Shown here in pieces: positions 19,363 to 58,614 of a stretch of DNA of 64,000 nucleotides. The notes beneath the pieces are model-generated. The model was not told where the DNA came from and searched no databases. It saw only the letters and a list, made by a program, of their open reading frames with translations. The stretch comes from an uncultured Gammaproteobacteria bacterium (lineage in GTDB: Bacteria; Patescibacteriota; Patescibacteriia; UBA9934; GWF2-40-263). The stretch lies in NCBI GenBank assembly GCA_964399675.1, contig CAYNRK010000002.1, positions 46,982 through 110,981 on the forward strand, in the 5' to 3' direction. Each line of letters starts with the position of its first letter. The first letter of the stretch is position 1. The position numbers and the translations under genes are program-made.

Positions 19363-19543
19363 TTTTGTTGGAAAATTACTTATTATAGTTGACAAAAGCA
19401 CTAAAATGTGGTATAAATTGGCGTCTGTTTGCGAGTTCAGTTCTCAACTTTGGTGTTGAAAACGGGCTCTTAACAGGAGTTCGTTAACATCATCATCACA
19501 ACCCATCCGCACCAAAATGCGGATACATAGAAGAGGAGTCAAG

Positions 19544-20212
19544 ATGCACAGGACCTACGCGCTCCTGGCCATCAGCCTGATGGTCACCGGATGCTTCCGC
19601 CCGGATCTCCGGCCGGATGTCCGACCGACCCCGCCACCGACCGCACCGGTCGCGGACACCACCACGCCCGAGCCCACCGCATCCAACCCCGGCGAGAAGC
19701 CCTGCATCACCGGGCTCATCATCCTGGCCGATGACGGTCGCATGGAGCTCGAGGGCTGTCCCAAGGAGTGGGAGGTCTTCAGTCCGTTCAAGAAGGGCAA
19801 CACCGATACCGAAGACTCGGACGTCTCGGTAGGACGTTCGATCTACAAGATCCCCAACCCGAGCAAGTCCGAACTGTTCAACGGACCCGACATGCAGGGG
19901 ATCTACTACTTCCCTGGGGAGGATGCCAACGAGCGATACATCGAAGTCGATCAAGAAGACCAGCTCTGGTACCACGCAAAGGTGGACGGAGAATGGACAC
20001 AGAAGGAGCTCTTCAGCGCTCTGAAGGTGAATCGCTGGGTGAGTGAAAAGCGCAAGCTCACCCCGTTCCTGACACCCGGCATCATGGGACCGCCCGTGGT
20101 CCCGAGGGAGCAAGCCTGCGGCCAGATCTTGTGCGGAGACGCATGGCACATGCTACACCCGCTCAAGCAGACGCGGCTACTGCTCCACCTCCCGTCCAAG
20201 GGCAAGTCGTAG
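19544..20212 (+). CDS. lipoprotein, paralog family A member 1 (GC-rich island 1)
   Basis: Lipobox LMVTGC and a conserved C-ITGLIIL...EGCP motif. AAGAGGAG ribosome-binding site. The final motif is CGDAWHML. Confidence 0.6.
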   Translation: MHRTYALLAISLMVTGCFRPDLRPDVRPTPPPTAPVADTTTPEPTASNPGEKPCITGLIILADDGRMELEGCPKEWEVFSPFKKGNTDTEDSDVSVGRSIYKIPNPSKSELFNGPDMQGIYYFPGEDANERYIEVDQEDQLWYHAKVDGEWTQKELFSALKVNRWVSEKRKLTPFLTPGIMGPPVVPREQACGQILCGDAWHMLHPLKQTRLLLHLPSKGKS

Positions 20213-20239
20213 GGTTGTGATGATGCGCCGCTGACAAGG

Positions 20240-20392
20240 CGGCTCTCTCACTCAGGGCGTTGGTCTTCACCGACCTTCGCCCTACCCTTTCTTGTGTACA
20301 TCAGATTCTGGTGTTTACAAGAAAGCGTTCTCAACCGAGTTCGCTAAGTATCGTAACGTCTGCGTTGGAACGTGGGCATGCTCAGGAGTTAG
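20240..20392 (+). promoter_or_regulatory. conserved inter-cassette module, copy 1: terminator-like hairpin, palindromic operator overlapping a -35/-10 promoter, and a conserved leader
   Basis: Sequence reads ctcactcagggcg...cgccc, then ttgtgNacat...18 nt...t(a/t)tacaag, then aaagcg, then leader type A. Confidence 0.55.
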
Positions 20393-20998
20393 ATGCAGAG
20401 AATCTGTACGATCCTGGTCGCCATCTTGGTGGCCTCGGCGTGTGCAAGCACGCCAGTCAAGCCGTCGCAATCCACGTGCTACACAGGCATGTACATCGTA
20501 GGCGAAGACGGCCGTATCGAGATGCAGGGCTGTCCGCGTGTGAACAAGGTCGTCATGGCTTTCGGAGAAAGAAAGCCGGCCGGCATGACGCGTGATGCAA
20601 CATGGGTGCGTCGTCTGTCTCCGAACTCTACGCCGAGCCACATGCTCGAAGGTCCGGATTCGCAGGGACGATACTTCTACAAGATGACCGAGGGTGAGCT
20701 TCCCCCGAAGTACCTCTCGCTCATCAACGGAGTTCCGCACCTTCACATTCTACGCGAAGGAAGTTCCGCATACAGAGTGGAGAAGTTGCATCCAGCCTAC
20801 ACGGTTCGCGAATGGGTCACGAAGCCAGGAGCTTCCAAGCTACTCGCAGAAGGAACCAAGGAGCCCCTTACCATGCTGATCGACCTCCAAGGTCAGATCA
20901 TCAGCGGTCGCCCGTTCCATGTGCTCAGCAAGGCCAATCAGAAAGAGCGTCTGATCGATCTCTCGCAGATGCCGACTGACAAGCCTTCCGGGTCGTGA
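20393..20998 (+). CDS. lipoprotein, paralog family A member 2
   Basis: Lipobox LVASAC and the CYTGMYIV...QGCP motif. Confidence 0.6.
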   Translation: MQRICTILVAILVASACASTPVKPSQSTCYTGMYIVGEDGRIEMQGCPRVNKVVMAFGERKPAGMTRDATWVRRLSPNSTPSHMLEGPDSQGRYFYKMTEGELPPKYLSLINGVPHLHILREGSSAYRVEKLHPAYTVREWVTKPGASKLLAEGTKEPLTMLIDLQGQIISGRPFHVLSKANQKERLIDLSQMPTDKPSGS

Positions 20999-21012
20999 AG
21001 ACAGGCCGCTGA

Positions 21013-21153
21013 AAGGCGGCACTCTCACTCAGGGCGTGGTCCCAAAACCCACGCCCCGTTTCCTTGTGAACATGAGTAAATCTCGTGTATACAAGAAAGC
21101 GTTCTCAACCGAGTTCGCTAGAAATGACCACAGGGCTCAAGGAGGGTCAGAAC
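21013..21153 (+). promoter_or_regulatory. conserved inter-cassette module, copy 2
   Basis: Same module with leader type A. Confidence 0.55.
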
Positions 21154-22299
21154 ATGAGGATCATCGCCAACCTGTGCCTGCTGCTTGCCATCATGGCACC
21201 CAGCATCACCGCAGCGGAGACGCTGTCCGAAGCACTCGATCGCATGGAAGCCCAGGCCGAGATCGACCGAGAGCAGGTTCCGCTCTTTGCCATCACTGCC
21301 GAACGACTCAAGACGAACAGTGACGAGCTGTTCGGCATGCCAACGGACGTGATCAAAGCTGCCCGTCGTGTGGGTGGCTCGATGACGTTCGTCCGTGTGG
21401 GCGAATCATCGCTCAAGATCGAAGGCAAGAACGGCATTGTGACGTTTACCATGTATCTCTCGGTACAGAGCGCTCCGGACGCAAGAGGTAGTGTCCTTGC
21501 CTCAAACCGGGACAACCCGATCGAAAAGCTGATCGGCTGGGTGCACGGCATGCACACGAGCGGCATTGTCTTCGAGAAGAAGAAGGAAGGAACGGTCAAG
21601 GTCGTTCCCAACTTCATGACATGCAATGGCATCACCTTCGGCGGAAGGCTTCCCTACAACACAGAAGAGGCGTGCGAGCGTTTCGGGTTCGGAAGCCCCA
21701 GCAGGCTGCGGATCTGGAAGACGCCAGAAGATCGAAAAAGCGAGGACCAGTTCCTCATGTACCTGATGGCGCACTACGGAGAAAAAGGGGTGCTCACCCG
21801 GGCATCGCTCACCCAAGCGCTCGAAGCGCACAACGACCGCGTAAGCGCTGTCATCAAGGCCTCCGAGGAAAAGACCGGGTACGTCAGGTACAACCACTAC
21901 GCAGGCGACTACTCCACAGTGAAGGGGCACTTGCTCCGAGCCAATGTGCTCAGCAGGGCATACAGCATCCGGCCTGACGGACGTGTGGAGATCGCGGTTC
22001 ACGTGTACTCCGAACGCGTAGCAGGAGTCGAGGTGGAGCTGCAGTACGAAGACGGCAGCCCAGTTGCACCGACTACGATCGGCAACTTGGCCAAGGCAAC
22101 CATCGCACGTTCCAACCTGGTTCCCTCAGAGACAGGTCTGAGCGGCTTCGAAATCATCAAGGTTCAGCTTCCGTCAGGGCTCAAACCCGGAAAGCTCCGC
22201 ATCATGGCAAATGCCGTGGGCAACGATGGCAGAAGGCTCGTCCGAGACGAAGAGATCGGAACGTTCGAGTACGCAGTCAAGAGCCCCGACAAGAAGTAA
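21154..22299 (+). CDS. secreted hypothetical protein (signal peptide)
   Basis: N-terminus reads MRIIANLCLLLAIMAPSITAAE. It lies in GC-rich island 1. Confidence 0.5.
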   Translation: MRIIANLCLLLAIMAPSITAAETLSEALDRMEAQAEIDREQVPLFAITAERLKTNSDELFGMPTDVIKAARRVGGSMTFVRVGESSLKIEGKNGIVTFTMYLSVQSAPDARGSVLASNRDNPIEKLIGWVHGMHTSGIVFEKKKEGTVKVVPNFMTCNGITFGGRLPYNTEEACERFGFGSPSRLRIWKTPEDRKSEDQFLMYLMAHYGEKGVLTRASLTQALEAHNDRVSAVIKASEEKTGYVRYNHYAGDYSTVKGHLLRANVLSRAYSIRPDGRVEIAVHVYSERVAGVEVELQYEDGSPVAPTTIGNLAKATIARSNLVPSETGLSGFEIIKVQLPSGLKPGKLRIMANAVGNDGRRLVRDEEIGTFEYAVKSPDKK

Positions 22300-22319
22300 C
22301 CGACCACCGCATTCGTGCA

Positions 22320-22465
22320 ACACTCTCACTCAGGGCGTGGTCCCAAAACCCACGCCCCGTTTCCTTGTGAACATGAGCAAGTCTCGTGTACACAAGAAAG
22401 CGTGCAAACGCTTACCTAATCTCAACCAGCTCGTGATCCGTTGCGAGCAGTTCTAAGAGGACAAG
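22320..22465 (+). promoter_or_regulatory. conserved inter-cassette module, copy 3 (leader type B)
   Basis: Same hairpin and operator/promoter. The leader carries a gctcgtgatccgttgcgagc hairpin. Confidence 0.55.
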
Positions 22466-23119
22466 ATGACAAGAACACTCGCGTTCCTGTTGCTTGCAAC
22501 AATCGTTCTGCAAGGATGTGCCTGGCAGCTCTTTCCAAGGTCAGACTCGATCCCCAAGATCGTGACCGAAGAAGAAAACGATGAAGCACCCAAGCAGTGC
22601 TACACTGGCCTGATCATCATCACAAAAGACAAGTCTGCAGTCGAGGTTAGAGGCTGTCCTGACGAGTGGGCAATCTTCCGCCCAGTCAACAATCTTGGAC
22701 TGATCAATCATCCGGTGAACATCTCCTATTCCAAGGAAAGACACCCAACACCGAACATGATCATCGCAAGTGCGGATGATTACGGACGGTTTCATCTGCC
22801 AGCCCAAGAGGGGCAGCCCGCAAGATACATCAAGTTCGTGAACAGCTACCCAAGGCTTCACTGGACTGACCCAAAGTTGGGTGAGCAGCAAAGTGACCTC
22901 TACCCTGTCTACATTCTCAAGCGAGCCATTGCAAGACATCTGGATCCGGCGATCTTTGTCGATCCGGTCAATGGATGGCCACCTCTCGAAGAGCTGACCC
23001 ACGACTGTGGTGAATTCTTCTGCGGTCGTGCGTATCACCTGCTGCCTCCAGAAGAGCAAGCAAAGCGCTGGCTGGACATTCCGGACATGTTCAAGAGCGA
23101 CTATGGACGACTGTGGTAG
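22466..23119 (+). CDS. lipoprotein, paralog family A member 3
   Basis: Lipobox LQGCAW, the CYTGLIII...RGCP motif, and a C-terminal CGRAYHLL. Confidence 0.6.
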   Translation: MTRTLAFLLLATIVLQGCAWQLFPRSDSIPKIVTEEENDEAPKQCYTGLIIITKDKSAVEVRGCPDEWAIFRPVNNLGLINHPVNISYSKERHPTPNMIIASADDYGRFHLPAQEGQPARYIKFVNSYPRLHWTDPKLGEQQSDLYPVYILKRAIARHLDPAIFVDPVNGWPPLEELTHDCGEFFCGRAYHLLPPEEQAKRWLDIPDMFKSDYGRLW

Positions 23120-23139
23120 TATTCACAAATCGTTCGCCT

Positions 23140-23284
23140 CAGGGCGTTGGTTCTCACGAACCTTCGCCCTCCGTTTCCTTGTGAACATGCGCAAGTCTCG
23201 TGTTCAAAAGAAAGCGTCTTCATTACGAAGTTCGCTACATCTCGTAACGTCTGCGTTGGAACGTGGGCAAAAACCAGGAGCAGC
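23140..23284 (+). promoter_or_regulatory. conserved inter-cassette module, copy 4 (leader type A)
   Basis: Same module. Confidence 0.55.
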
Positions 23285-23890
23285 ATGAATAGGATCTGTA
23301 CGCTCTTGATCGTCTTGATGGCAATCGTGGCATGTGAAGCATGTGCCAGTACCAATGCCGAGCCAAAGCCGAGTGGCAGCGCAACCGCCACCGCCGAGAA
23401 GCCGTTCGATTACGCCACGCTGCCGGACCAAGCCGAGTGGACCTACTCGCTGGCAGCCGGCCTTCTCTGGACCGAACGGCAGAGAATCCAGTCTACGAAC
23501 ATGCCGGAGCCGGTCTGGAAAGCCTTTCCGCTTCCGGAGTTCGCAGGACAACAATCGCGCTTCGTACCCATGGTCAGGCCAAGCTACGGCGGCTCCTACG
23601 GCTATGGCATGGACTCGTCCAGGTGCGTGGTAGACGCCCTGATCAAGACCAACTCGATCAACGCTCGCGGTCTGGGTATCTCGGGCGGACAGTACGCCTA
23701 CTACCAGATCGTCAAGAAGATCGAGGATCCACTCCTCTACGATCCGCGCAACTTCGCCTTCCTGATCCGCTACCAGGAAGCCTACCTCAAGGTCACCTTC
23801 CCGAACCTTCACCAGATGAAGGTACAACGGTTGAAGGCTCCGACAGAGTTCAGCACAGGTCCATGCTCTCCCCCCATCAGCCAGTACTGA
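23285..23890 (+). CDS. lipoprotein (different family)
   Basis: Lipobox LMAIVAC. Confidence 0.5.
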   Translation: MNRICTLLIVLMAIVACEACASTNAEPKPSGSATATAEKPFDYATLPDQAEWTYSLAAGLLWTERQRIQSTNMPEPVWKAFPLPEFAGQQSRFVPMVRPSYGGSYGYGMDSSRCVVDALIKTNSINARGLGISGGQYAYYQIVKKIEDPLLYDPRNFAFLIRYQEAYLKVTFPNLHQMKVQRLKAPTEFSTGPCSPPISQY

Positions 23891-23914
23891 GCTGAACAAC
23901 GACACCCTCACTCA

Positions 23915-24050
23915 GGGCGCTCGTCCTCACAAACTAGCGCCCACGTTTCCTTGTGAACATGAGTAAGCTCGTGTTTAAAAGAAAGCGTGAAAACGCTTAC
24001 CACATCAACCAGCTCGTGATCCGTTGCGAGCAGTTCCAAAAAGGAAAACC
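23915..24050 (+). promoter_or_regulatory. conserved inter-cassette module, copy 5 (leader type B)
   Basis: Same module. Confidence 0.55.
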
Positions 24051-24416
24051 ATGAAGAACCAAACACTCTTCGTTGTCCTGCTGGGGATCCTGACACTTTC
24101 GCTTGCGATTTGCTGCGGAATCCTCGGTTACAAAAGCGTAACAATCGAGAGTCAGCAGGAAGAAATCACTGCTTGGCAAGAGGCAGTAGCACCGATCTTC
24201 ACGTACCGCAAGGGTGGAGACAAAAACACGGCTCGTTTCACACCAGCAATGGTCAAGAACGCGCTCAACCCTTGCCACTTCCGCCAGGATCTCGACGATG
24301 GAAGGCGTGTTCGTCTACGTGGATGCAACGAATTCCACAAACCAATCGGAAGAGTCCGGATCTCTGTGGAGTTCACCAATCCGGAGTTCAGAGAACTCAT
24401 CGAACACGGACCGTGA
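24051..24416 (+). CDS. small lipoprotein-like protein
   Basis: N-terminus LTLSLAICC and an LRGC motif. Confidence 0.45.
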   Translation: MKNQTLFVVLLGILTLSLAICCGILGYKSVTIESQQEEITAWQEAVAPIFTYRKGGDKNTARFTPAMVKNALNPCHFRQDLDDGRRVRLRGCNEFHKPIGRVRISVEFTNPEFRELIEHGP

Positions 24417-24427
24417 TCAACCAGGCC

Positions 24428-56335: not shown

Positions 56336-57253
56336 CTAGAATTTTGAACGCTTGACAATAGCCACTACAATCGCAATCATCCCAACAAATCCAATAAAGT
56401 ATAAAAAGCTGATAATCCTTGGGTCGTCGTAGTACGGAAGCCATGGCACGTTCATTCCGTAAAATCCAGCAAGAAGAGTTGGAACCATGAGCGACGCTGA
56501 GATAATGGTCAGCAAGGTGATTATGTCATTGGTTTTGTGAGACAACAAAGCTTCATTAACATCAAACATTCCGTCGATTAAAAGCTTAAGGTTGTCAGCT
56601 GTAAGCCAGATAGTATCAAGCACATCGTGCAAGTCATCCAAATATAAATGATTTTCTTCAGTTAAAAACGGACGTTTCAAATTGGCAAGACTGGCTAACA
56701 TACTACGTTGTGGATCGATCAGATGACGTGCATACAAAACATTGCGACGAACATGTCCAAGATCAACAGTAATTCGTCTTTGATGCTTGTGTTGAATCGC
56801 ATCTTCAAGTCTTGCAACTTCTTGAGTAAGATCTCCAACAATTGCCATTGATCCACGAAAAGCATCGTGCAAAATTTTGTACATCAGATATGAGGTTCCT
56901 TTTGCAAAAACAGAAGAGCGCGACTTATTTCCTTTTTTCAAACGGCCAAAATATTTTTGAACTGAATCAATAGGCGTGTTTGTAAGTGTGACAAGTTTGT
57001 CCTGGCTTAAAAACACATAAAGCTCCTCACCGTGAACATGACCGCTGTCTTTGTGCATTGTTGGAATGTGGAAAACAAAAAAAATGTAATGCTTGTACGG
57101 GTCCATTTTTGAAATCGGAGTTTCTGATTGAATGTCATCGTAATCAAGGTGATGGAAACGAAAATTGTCTTGAAGGTATTCAAGATCTTTGTCTTTTGCG
57201 CGTTGAATGTGAATCCATTCAATACCTTTTGCACTAATGATTGATTGGCTCAT
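56336..57253 (-). CDS. corA: CorA family Mg2+/Co2+ transporter
   Basis: GMN motif (YGMNVPWLPY) and two C-terminal transmembrane segments. Confidence 0.8.
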   Translation of the reverse strand: MSQSIISAKGIEWIHIQRAKDKDLEYLQDNFRFHHLDYDDIQSETPISKMDPYKHYIFFVFHIPTMHKDSGHVHGEELYVFLSQDKLVTLTNTPIDSVQKYFGRLKKGNKSRSSVFAKGTSYLMYKILHDAFRGSMAIVGDLTQEVARLEDAIQHKHQRRITVDLGHVRRNVLYARHLIDPQRSMLASLANLKRPFLTEENHLYLDDLHDVLDTIWLTADNLKLLIDGMFDVNEALLSHKTNDIITLLTIISASLMVPTLLAGFYGMNVPWLPYYDDPRIISFLYFIGFVGMIAIVVAIVKRSKF

Positions 57254-57975
57254 GAGACGTCACTTTTTTCTTTTTGTTTTTTATAGCCAAATGTGTAACA
57301 AAACTTGTTGTGTCGTATTGGTCCGATAAAAGCAAGATGCAATTCTGCCATCATGTATTTCATTGCGATTTTCATTCGTCCGTCTCGATCAAGACGACGA
57401 ATAGAAACCGGTATTCTGGTTGATTTCAAAAAACCAAACTTTCCAACCTTTTTAAATCTTTGAGCATAATCATGGTCTTCACAAAATAAAACCGTCTCAT
57501 CAAATCCTCCAATTTTTTCATGCAATTCTCTTCGTACAAACATGCAAAAACCCGGAGCGTGCGGAAAAAGCGATCCCCAAGCGCGTGCATATTTATTATA
57601 CGCTTTATGCATGAAATGATCGACCATGTCATCAGATAGTGGGAACACATCACATGTTGCCAAGCCAAGTCCGCGCTCGTTCATTTCCTGAATTGATTTT
57701 TCCAAAAACTCCGGATCGCGCAATTCAACATCTGCATCCAAAAATAAAATAAGTTCTGTGTTTGCCGCTTTTGCTCCATTGTTTCTACCAACAGATGGCA
57801 TACCTCCCTCCACTACTTTCACACCAAATGTTTTTGCGATTTTTTTGGTTTGATCGGTTGAGTCGGCATCAGCAACAATTATCTCTTCTGGTTGGCAGGT
57901 TTGTTTTTTAATTGAGGTAAGAAGCTTTGGTAAATATTCTTCTTCGTTTTTTGTTGGGATAATAATCGTGAGCAT
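57250..57975 (-). CDS. glycosyltransferase family 2
   Basis: LTIIIPTKNEE... Confidence 0.7.
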   Translation of the reverse strand: MLTIIIPTKNEEEYLPKLLTSIKKQTCQPEEIIVADADSTDQTKKIAKTFGVKVVEGGMPSVGRNNGAKAANTELILFLDADVELRDPEFLEKSIQEMNERGLGLATCDVFPLSDDMVDHFMHKAYNKYARAWGSLFPHAPGFCMFVRRELHEKIGGFDETVLFCEDHDYAQRFKKVGKFGFLKSTRIPVSIRRLDRDGRMKIAMKYMMAELHLAFIGPIRHNKFCYTFGYKKQKEKSDVS

Positions 57976-57976
57976 A

Positions 57977-58108
57977 ATGTAGATTTCCCCTCCTTTTCAA
58001 GGAGGGGTTAGGGGTGGTTATGATTTTGAAACAAGAACTTCTGTTTTTTCAAAATTCTAACCCCCTGTAAGTCCCCCTTAAAAAGGGGGACATTCGTGTC
58101 TACATTTT
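57977..58108. repeat. about 130-bp nested palindromic element (outer stem atgtagat/atctacat; inner hairpins cccctccttttcaaggagggg, aggggttag...ctaacccct, gtcccccttaaaaagggggac)
   Basis: Architecturally similar to the long nested hairpin of island 4 at 37278-37356 and 39838-39955. Confidence 0.6.
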
Positions 58109-58558
58109 ACCTGATTTTCCGCTCAGAGCAAACAGAGCAATTCCGGTTGCAACAGAAACATTGAGCGATTGTTTTTTACCGATCATGGGAATTTCTATTA
58201 TTTGATCACACACATCAAGAACTGTTTTTTCAATACCTTCAACTTCATTTCCAACAATCAACGCAATTGGCTCTGTTGTATTAACTGATTCAATTGATTC
58301 CCCGCCTGTTTCTAATCCAAAAATACTAATATTGCTTTTCTTTAATTCGTCTACAAGATCAAAAATATTTTCTTTATATTCCCAATCAACTCTGTGTTCT
58401 GATCCAAGAGCTACTTTTGCAATTTCTTTTCTAGGGGGTTGACCGGTATATCCAGTTAAATAAATCTTTTTGATCCCAAAAACATCAGCTGATCTAAAAA
58501 TCGAACCAACGTTATGAAGGGATCTAATGTTATGAGCAATGAGAATAATGTTTGACAT
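58100..58558 (-). CDS. SpoU/TrmH family RNA 2'-O-methyltransferase (TrmL-like)
   Basis: 152 aa with SPOUT-fold motifs. Confidence 0.7.
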   Translation of the reverse strand: MSNIILIAHNIRSLHNVGSIFRSADVFGIKKIYLTGYTGQPPRKEIAKVALGSEHRVDWEYKENIFDLVDELKKSNISIFGLETGGESIESVNTTEPIALIVGNEVEGIEKTVLDVCDQIIEIPMIGKKQSLNVSVATGIALFALSGKSGKM

Positions 58559-58614
58559 ATTGTATTACATGCTATTAGATACAGGCGTCCACATCAAGCA
58601 AGAGGAATCGGACA

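Follow-up and report, generated by a model that had tools for sequence, protein, structure and literature searches.

Here we describe a nested palindrome of 131 bp at positions 57976-58106 of a 64-kb stretch of bacterial DNA (64,000 nucleotides, hereafter the window), which lies within the 124-nt spacer of two minus-strand genes. The upstream gene encodes a SpoU/TrmH methyltransferase and the downstream gene a family-2 glycosyltransferase (GT2). The best matches found in a homologue search with the SpoU protein (64-72% identity) belong to Candidatus Uhrbacteria, and we therefore place the host organism there. The element consists of two inverted copies of a short three-segment unit, enclosed by an outer stem, and the parts of the locus are as follows.

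57250-57975, minus strand: GT2 gene, downstream of the element (Pfam PF00535, E = 5e-27).
57976-57983: left outer arm AATGTAGA, pairing 8/8 with TCTACATT at 58099-58106.
57987-58020, plus strand: left triplex motif (type 1), with a perfect 9-bp hairpin and a mirror box agreeing 9/9 with the triplex code; pyrimidine (Y) arm CCCCTCCTT at 57987-57995, loop TTC, purine (R) arm AAGGAGGGG at 57999-58007 (hairpin 57987-58007), loop TTA, reverse-Hoogsteen box GGGGTGGTT at 58011-58019, then A.
58004-58011 with 58057-58064: middle stem, GGGGTTAG with CTAACCCC, running on through the central AT-rich palindrome.
58021-58057: spacer between the motifs (37 nt), with an extra AT-rich palindrome GATTTTGAAA...TTTCAAAATT; spacer fold z = -3.1.
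58058-58091, minus strand: right triplex motif (type 2), with a 9-bp hairpin and a mirror box agreeing 8/8 over the purine positions; on the minus strand Y arm GTCCCCCTT, loop TTT, R arm AAGGGGGAC, loop TTA, box CAGGGGGTT, then A.
58071-58091: third hairpin, GTCCCCCTT-AAA-AAGGGGGAC, 9 bp, perfect.
58099-58106: right outer arm TCTACATT, overlapping the SpoU stop codon (cta at 58100-58102, TAG on the minus strand).
58100-58558, minus strand: SpoU/TrmH methyltransferase gene, upstream of the element (Pfam PF00588, E = 1.5e-37).

An earlier reading of the same DNA, the first-pass annotation, had listed an outer stem, an inner hairpin followed by a G-run box, and a second hairpin, and all of these are present. 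The outer stem pairs 8/8 in a register shifted from the annotated one, in which the agreement is 7/8 (atgtagat vs gtctacat). On the minus strand, the left outer arm is the terminal ...TCTACATT of the element and directly precedes the GT2 start codon. A three-hairpin junction is predicted on either strand, with z = -8.5 (minus) and -6.4 (plus) when folded as RNA and z = -7.0 and -6.7 when folded as single-stranded DNA, and none of 200 shuffled sequences folded as well as the element. Taken as a whole, the element is also a single long, imperfect palindrome, whose two arms of 46 nt show 76% complementarity.

We found that the gene order Era..SpoU-GT2-CorA-PTAC-PKD is kept in three Uhrbacteria relatives, whose SpoU proteins are 67-72% identical to the one encoded here. 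Their SpoU-GT2 spacers measure 10-11 nt, as opposed to 124 nt in the window, and we therefore conclude that the element is an insertion. As far as this comparison can tell, it entered a spacer of originally 10-11 nt in an Uhrbacteria-like genome and would be one of several copies there. The SpoU C-terminus reads ..SGKSGKM* here vs ..TQNKR* or ..TRKAR* in the relatives. One relative, GCA_002793515, carries the motif on another contig, without a motif at the SpoU-GT2 site.

The first-pass annotation had also proposed a search of the rest of the genome, and a further copy was indeed met. Contigs of the same strain in public data match the window at 100% identity and extend 4.5 kb past its end, so that the genome sequence read amounts to ~68.5 kb. 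A second inverted doublet lies in these 4.5 kb, ~3.1 kb past window position 64000 (contig L001, 1375-1460). Its parts follow one another as in the element (type 2, spacer, type 1), its right half is identical to that of the element (35/35 nt), and its spacer is homologous but 23 nt shorter (14 nt). Outside the motifs, both doublets have the flanks ATGT..CGAA and AA.TCTACA in common; the former, at the left terminus on the minus strand, continues as ATGT..CGAA.GTCCCCC, and the latter, the left flank of the element, recurs at L001 1459-1468. Since these outer flanks are shared, we assign the outer stem to the repeat itself, of which the genome holds dispersed copies. The second doublet directly follows a terminator-like hairpin, between an open reading frame (ORF) of 289 amino acids and an HD-domain gene. 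Altogether, at least seven motifs lie within the ~68.5 kb of this genome.

Two further observations concern these contigs. Another motif at L001 1911-1942 on the minus strand, CCCCCCCT-gcccg-AGGGGGGG-tta-GGGGGGGT, apparently lies inside the called HD-domain ORF (L001 1519-2868). Moreover, two short-read Logan contigs of the same strain, L004 and L005, both end inside the element, ~139 nt into the compared 200-nt stretch, which indicates that the element breaks assemblies.

A pattern made of the 3' half of the hairpin and the following G-run ending in GGTTA was run against public metagenomes and species-representative genomes. Over 120 contigs of the former and over 118 of the latter matched, at G+C contents of 27 to 66%; altogether, over 230 public contigs contain the unit, and their sources include Patescibacteria, Bacteroidota, Proteobacteria, Nitrospinota and cyanobacteria, among others. 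The unit is 34 nt long and tripartite: a pyrimidine arm is followed by a purine arm and then by a G/T box, which is a mirror image of the purine arm (G for G, T or A for A). Among the matches listed, the unit is near-identical across phyla, and the left motif of the element has exactly its commonest form. In the 263 distinct copies among these matches, the 5' arm, which the pattern left unconstrained, forms a stem of exactly 9 bp with the 3' arm. Compensatory pairs are seen at position 5 (T:A in 222 copies, C:G in 35) and at position 2 (C:G in 230, T:A in 21). The positions that adjoin the stem are unconserved and form a pair in just 32% and 23% of the copies.

The box is complementary to nothing within the unit and instead follows the purine arm. 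The arm AAGGAGGGG occurs with the box GGGGTGGTT and rarely with GGGGAGGTT, the variant arm AAGGGGGAG with GAGGGGGTT or GTGGGGGTT, and AAGGGGGGG with GGGGGGGTT; cyanobacterial relatives of the unit have boxes of the GGGGGGC or GATC type. Position 5 is the single box position that the scan pattern left free to disagree, and there the combinations of arm and box were (A,T) in 116, (A,A) in 12 and (G,G) in 36 copies, with no exception in 164 distinct copies. All nine positions obey the mirror rule in 140 of these 164, and the lengths of the G-runs co-vary. A scan of all fetched DNA that did not depend on the pattern found a mirror box 1-9 nt downstream of 382 out of 822 hairpins with a homopurine arm, compared with 52 for boxes in direct orientation and 33 for boxes displaced by 40 nt; 122 of the 382 fall outside the scan pattern and have other sequences, such as CCCTCTCC..GGAGAGGG..GGGTGAGG. 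These correspondences, G for G and T or A for A in antiparallel orientation to the purine strand, are those of the purine-motif DNA triple helix. This three-way covariation in hundreds of natural variants is evidence for selection on the third strand.

Concerning the context of the copies, 226 of 282 lie outside ORFs as judged by crude ORF calls, and their orientation relative to flanking transcription (65 opposite, 51 same; same crude calls) reveals no strand bias, in keeping with an action at the level of DNA. Inverted pairs of a type 1 and a type 2 motif recur, and we found 16 distinct short doublets. Their spacers measure 15-122 nt and are not generally palindromic; palindromic spacers were considered as a general feature of doublets and rejected, as few of the 16 have structured spacers. 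A phage element was likewise considered and is ruled out by the full pattern occurring in 1 of 2.9 million IMG/VR viral contigs. Single type-2 units AACCCCCTGTAATCCCCCTTAAATAGGGGGA, with a TGTAA loop, are found in non-coding DNA of single-stranded DNA phages (L249 590-640, Microviridae sp. MG945463.1, and five other microvirus records). A lineage-specific pattern, AAGGGGGN{4,8}GGGGGTTAGAAWTTWGAA, had no match in GTDB genomes, and a full-text literature search on the unit sequence returned nothing useful.

The architecture of the unit is that of the class-II intrastrand triplex motif, defined by a pyrimidine arm, a purine arm and a reverse-Hoogsteen strand (Holder et al. 2015, PMC4666352). In E. 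coli this motif goes by the names BoxC, PIT element and TMECO (PMC4666352, citing Hoyne, Maher et al. 2000). Its published traits are 9-nt stems, a second loop of 3 nt that is often TTA, a strictly intergenic location, no strand bias, inverted pairs that combine two subtypes and an association with rearranged loci (PMC4666352). Our units have the same order of segments, the 9-nt stems, the 3-nt loop that is often TTA and the G/T(A) mirror segment; they are multi-copy, intergenic and unbiased by strand, and they form inverted two-subtype pairs at variable loci. Against a definition of stems of 6-15 nt, loops of 1-6 nt and at most one mismatch in the third segment, the intact window motifs have perfect 9-bp stems (57987-58007, 58071-58091 and, in a second place of the window described below, 37304-37324), a first loop of 3 nt, a second loop of 3-5 nt and mirror scores of 9/9, 8/8 and 9/9; all four window copies, including an interrupted one, obey the mirror rule.

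On the other hand, the TMECO consensus, CCCTCNCCC N3-6 GGGNGAGGG N3 GGGNGAGGG, does not describe the window units (CCCCTCCTT.., GTCCCCCTT.., TCCCCCCTT..). Having the structure that defines the class without this consensus, they form a different sequence family of the same class, with CCCCTCCTT/AAGGAGGGG/GGGGTGGTT and G-only variants in the place of CCCTCNCCC/GGGNGAGGG/GGGNGAGGG. They also differ from BoxC/TMECO in their host, here an AT-rich bacterium of the candidate phyla radiation, and in a form that is near-identical across phyla. The element is thus a new member of the known BoxC/PIT/TM (triplex motif) class, which is extended to candidate-phyla-radiation bacteria and many phyla in one nearly invariant 34-nt form. 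The insertion, the shared outer termini and the placement of one gene family, DUF559, between paired motifs are unreported for BoxC/TMECO in the searchable literature.

Among the matches listed, genes for DUF559 proteins form the largest cluster of neighbour genes, at 14 loci in the first set and 23 in the full set; the remaining clusters consist of housekeeping genes, and no transposase cluster, Y1 and IS110-like included, was present among the neighbours of these motif loci. The DUF559 protein has ~120 amino acids (Pfam PF04480, E = 1e-33) and matches PDB 3HRL, an uncharacterised 'endonuclease-like' protein. In the same set of matches, the gene lies on the box side of 23 motif copies vs the hairpin side of 1. 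It is found between two inverted motifs with their boxes facing inward, and its C-terminus, NHP*, is often encoded by the box itself (TAACCACCCC-TAG, read as AAC CAC CCC TAG).

This association was also seen in an independent sample, in which eight DUF559 genes were chosen by protein (tblastn in annotated replicons). Seven adjoin triplex motifs that are specific to their lineage (Picosynechococcus, Pseudanabaena, Photobacterium, Deinococcus, Synechocystis, Neisseria gonorrhoeae and E. coli, where the gene is ycjD), the sole exception being that of Sinorhizobium. In E. coli 042 (L259 1890-2145) a TMECO/BoxC motif has the ycjD stop codon in its loop, and the spacer between ycjD and fabI is taken up by two TMECO copies in inverted orientation. 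A supplementary table of Holder et al. places TMECO 9 between fabI and ycjD, without comment (PMC4666352). The gene is missing in ~2080 of 5426 complete E. coli genomes. An 'empty doublet' was sought in a genome of this kind (L260), and the comparison was uninformative because a TetR/RND efflux island lies at that place. We found no paper linking DUF559 or ycjD with triplex motifs in a literature that leaves out most subscription journals, and this association is the part of our results that may be new. It ties together two long-standing orphans, the triplex repeats and the large DUF559 family (E. coli YcjD, structure 3HRL); should the link prove functional, simple biochemistry could test both directly. 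The 37-nt spacer of the element holds no DUF559 gene, and no DUF559 similarity exists anywhere in the window; the element is the ORF-less form of a TM-DUF559-TM cassette.

Considering all the above results, we believe it likely that the element is a non-coding, selfish-looking, dispersed repeat of ~131 bp, composed of two inverted class-II triplex motifs, which inserted into the SpoU-GT2 spacer and represents the ORF-less form of a DUF559-associated family. Each unit would fold on one DNA strand into a 9-bp hairpin, and its 3' G/T segment would fold back on the purine arm to give triplets of the kinds G*G-C and T(A)*A-T. Triplex formation in vitro has been demonstrated for TMECO by Holder et al. 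(PMC4666352). The folded single strand, or the cruciform or long-hairpin forms of the doublet, may be the signal for spread, and the repeat would have spread at the DNA level, probably via the folded single-stranded form. A DUF559 nuclease encoded elsewhere could supply cleavage or homing, by analogy with RAYT proteins and REPINs (PMC3116915). We infer this DUF559-driven mobility from the positions of the genes, and if the model holds, the element is a non-autonomous copy.

A broader proposal, which we put forward tentatively and regard as possible rather than probable, is that triplex motifs are the ends and the non-autonomous derivatives of minimal mobile cassettes that encode structure-specific DUF559 endonucleases and cross phyla. 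The target of DUF559 proteins would then be the hairpin-plus-third-strand fold or the corresponding duplex, and the proteins would drive the copying or homing of the doublets. If true, the origin of the BoxC/PIT/TM motifs, unexplained since the 1990s, would lie in DUF559 mobile cassettes, in a system that parallels RAYT/REPIN but works with a Vsr-like nuclease and a triplex DNA signal, across phyla.

Known classes of mobile and repeated DNA offer partial parallels to these cassettes. The free-standing or intron-borne homing endonucleases of the I-Bth0305I class are Vsr-like enzymes with a PD-(D/E)xK fold, and here, too, a small Vsr-like nuclease gene is embedded in the middle of a symmetric DNA site; unlike for those enzymes, the sole solved relative of DUF559 is the uncharacterised 3HRL. 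Elhai et al. in 2008 reportedly described small dispersed repeats of Nostoc. With these and with bacterial miniature inverted-repeat transposable elements our repeats share small size, structure and nesting in each other and in hairpin loops, examples here being a motif in the loop of a larger hairpin (module D, see below), a 39-nt palindrome in a motif and palindromes in doublet spacers. Inverted termini are shared by the two genomic copies and with the DUF559 cassettes; unlike in miniature inverted-repeat elements, no classical transposase was identified here, and no target-site duplication in the comparison with distant relatives.

Several points weigh against the preferred reading and its mechanism. 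The relatives with an empty site are distant (67-72% protein identity), and the SpoU-GT2 junction has no clear target-site duplication when compared with them. Only ~8% of the motif copies among the matches listed adjoin a DUF559 gene, and none lies in the 68.5 kb of this genome that were read. To our knowledge, a lone PD-(D/E)xK nuclease is not a known transposase, and DUF559 genes homing into pre-existing motifs could equally explain the association. Within a doublet, moreover, a box may engage in Watson-Crick pairing with the box of its partner rather than form a third strand. Triplex formation is here suggested by covariation and by published work on a different sequence family; mixed antiparallel G*GC/T*AT triplexes are not the most stable kind, according to another paper (PMC4807104), and Holder et al. 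saw no link of TMECO to mobile elements (PMC4666352).

The main alternative for the mechanism is that doublets are structural or recombinogenic sites which persist for other reasons, and that DUF559 genes, as free-standing genes of homing-type endonucleases, preferentially insert at their centres. This would fit most of the data. Doublet centres are a hot spot for nested insertions, with a spacer of 15 nt in L109 and spacers of 110-122 nt containing a palindrome in L073 and L036, and overall the spacers range from 15 to ~450 nt around constant motifs. TM loci are hot spots of rearrangement in E. coli (PMC4666352), and the ycjD site can hold a different gene island. Such landing sites would leave unexplained why ORF-less doublets with shared outer termini are dispersed in one genome and why the 34-nt unit is near-identical across phyla, and we consider this alternative unlikely, if still a serious competitor.

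The other readings that we weighed, an RNA regulator, a part of an island-specific system and a REPIN, are each contradicted by tests made here. As a cis-regulatory RNA, the three-hairpin structure would control GT2 by sequestering its Shine-Dalgarno sequence, by attenuation or termination, or by stabilising the mRNA. The fold of the minus strand as RNA (see above) is in its favour, as is the Shine-Dalgarno-like AAGGAGGGG (minus strand, 57987-57995), which ends 11 nt upstream of the GT2 ATG, enclosed in the stem of a 9-bp hairpin. Elsewhere, an ORF starts within 30 nt after 27 of 125 type-1 copies, 19 of them with ATG. However, the count in the control direction is 17 of 125, the structure is absent at the same junction in the three relatives, and the motif family has no strand bias and is also found in convergent and divergent spacers. 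No terminator-like site (GC-rich hairpin with T-tract) is present in 57700-58700, and promoter-like matches near the element are at chance level. There was no Rfam match in the window at gathering thresholds, and permissive searches of the element and of the island described below gave chance-level hits only. PIT elements are without promoter or terminator activity in E. coli, as Holder et al. summarise (PMC4666352); according to the same authors, RNA does not form purine-motif triplexes. We thus regard this control as improbable. A related candidate, a 5'-UTR (untranslated region) regulator acting through a Shine-Dalgarno hairpin, which the frequent 'CAT' to the left of the hairpin had prompted, was rejected because 27 vs 17 of 125 is a weak enrichment. 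In the transcript of SpoU and GT2 we would expect only the hairpins to form; the inserted AAGGAGGGG probably keeps GT2 translatable, with one arm incidentally supplying its Shine-Dalgarno sequence.

The first-pass annotation had started from a likeness between the element and the long hairpins of a GC-rich island of the window (island 4, 37060-40400), and suggested a degenerate or ancestral copy of the island's module or a recognition structure shared by its system. The copies of the unit in this island are the following.

37304-37337, plus strand: motif copy a, TCCCCCCTT-TTC-AAGGGGGGA-TCC-AGGGGGGTT-A; mirror rule 9/9.
39864-39936, plus strand: motif copy b, with the purine arm interrupted by a 39-nt GC-rich palindrome at 39879-39917.

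The likeness itself stands. A local alignment of the element with 37278-37356 and 39838-39955 scored 43, compared with 15.2 +/- 2.2 in 1000 shuffles (maximum 26). Each half of the element aligns with the single island copy, the minus-strand match being the better one and the right (type 2) motif the best; the element is therefore an inverted pair of one ~34-45-nt unit, which is present once in each long island-4 hairpin. The parts follow in the same order, and since this order is shared, the similarity goes beyond generic G-run hairpins, to which the annotation had reckoned it might be limited. The outer stems, which it had included, are unrelated (cacatttgattct in island 4 vs aatgtaga in the element). 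The shared order of parts reflects the common descent of one sequence unit.

Support for an island-specific role could be seen in the restriction of the pattern (hairpin, G-run, GGTTA) within the 64-kb window to the element and the island-4 hairpins, with 0 occurrences expected; a dedicated motif scan of the window found exactly three intact motifs and the interrupted one, compared with 0-3 (mean 0.4) in shuffled windows. The island copy and the right half of the element share 18 nt, GGGGGTTAGAA.TT.GAA. Furthermore, IS110-family elements are known to target palindromic repeats, and the protein of island 4 could be of this kind. The alignment of the five module-D hairpins of the island argues otherwise. 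Three of them are short, with a loop of ~4 nt, and two have a 50-nt loop insertion that contains the motif, copy a lying inside such an insertion relative to the three short copies. Module D is characterised by the stem CACATTTGATT../..AATCACATGTG and the junction motifs CCCCTTTC and AAGGGTT, none of which has a counterpart at 57976-58106; only the inserted 50-nt segment is common to both. The likeness thus comes from a repeat that landed in both places and not from a shared system, and the two island-4 hairpins simply carry an inserted copy of the triplex motif. In copy b the imperfect palindrome 39879-39917, CCGTTCGAGGCTCTGAGGAGCCCTCAGGCTCTCGAAGAG, adds a third level of nesting (module-D loop, triplex motif, palindrome).

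A degenerate or ancestral island-4 module is accordingly contradicted, as the unit is an insertion in 2 of 5 module-D copies and missing from the other three. A recognition structure particular to the island-4 system, for instance one recognised by its IS110-like protein, fares no better: the unit occurs in hundreds of contigs from many phyla, where, as judged by the families of neighbouring genes and without a check for arrays like those of island 4, DUF559 is the sole enriched neighbour and neither IS110-like nor other transposase families are enriched; the second genomic doublet adjoins no island; and the island protein family is small (378 clusters) compared with a ubiquitous motif. We consider any such part in the island system very improbable. 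The palindrome is no evidence for a recognition structure shared with the GC-rich island, and a false lead is removed.

REPINs are inverted doublets of short palindromes with alternative long-hairpin and clover folds (Bertels and Rainey 2011, PMC3116915). Our repeats resemble REPIN/RAYT in their inverted doublets with a variable spacer, in occurring as singlets, doublets and clusters, in the possibility of both a hairpin and a clover fold, and in one small gene flanked by the same units beside many ORF-less copies. That the element is itself a REP doublet mobilised by a RAYT (IS200-like Y1 transposase) is nonetheless hardly credible: GTAG happens to occur in both outer arms here, but the positions outside the 9-bp stem are unconserved in the family, so that there is no GTAG or CGTC tag, the conserved third, mirror-symmetric segment has no counterpart in REPs, the unit is cross-phylum vs species-specific, and the flanked gene encodes a DUF559 PD-(D/E)xK nuclease vs a Y1 HUH transposase, a family of which no cluster was seen among the neighbours of the listed loci.

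Some observations on the rest of the window may be added. Arrays of hairpin modules lie on either side of the ORF of island 4 (37662-39305, 63% G+C). The modules are of at least five kinds; their stems are conserved, and their loops of ~30 nt vary. The ORF has no Pfam match, and a word-indexed search returned only itself; an exhaustive search returned 378 relatives (clusters), the best 37% identical, several of which weakly match DEDD_Tnp_IS110 and Transposase_20. By these matches its product would be a divergent IS110-like protein, and island 4 may be an RNA-guided IS110-like system with multi-hairpin arrays. At 36755-36800, inside the ORF 36016-36954, lies gcgtcgttgcgaggaggccgtccgacggccgacgaagcaatctcc, which resembles the GTCATTGCGAGG... 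palindromes in the doublet spacers of L073 and L036 and may represent a further small palindromic insert of wide distribution, in this case inside a coding sequence.

A minus-strand ORF at 60337-60849 encodes a PaaX central/Cas2-like domain (PF20803, E = 4e-15); no CRISPR array was noticed near it. An MFS transporter gene (58615-60162) with 57% G+C adjoins the AT-rich SpoU gene. In the three related Uhrbacteria a tRNA U5-methyltransferase gene occupies the interval from Era to SpoU, and the GC-rich MFS gene therefore looks like a replacement or an acquisition. Another GC-rich island, at 19389-24420 (~57% G+C in a 38% genome), begins with a promoter-like site TTGACA-17-TATAAA (19389-19417) and contains about six small ORFs with signal-peptide or lipoprotein-like N-termini, five of which were scanned without a Pfam match. 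Its spacers of ~130 nt are conserved and rich in hairpins (CTCACTCAGGGCG..CGCCCT and CTTTCTTGTGxACA..TGTxTACAAGAAAG).

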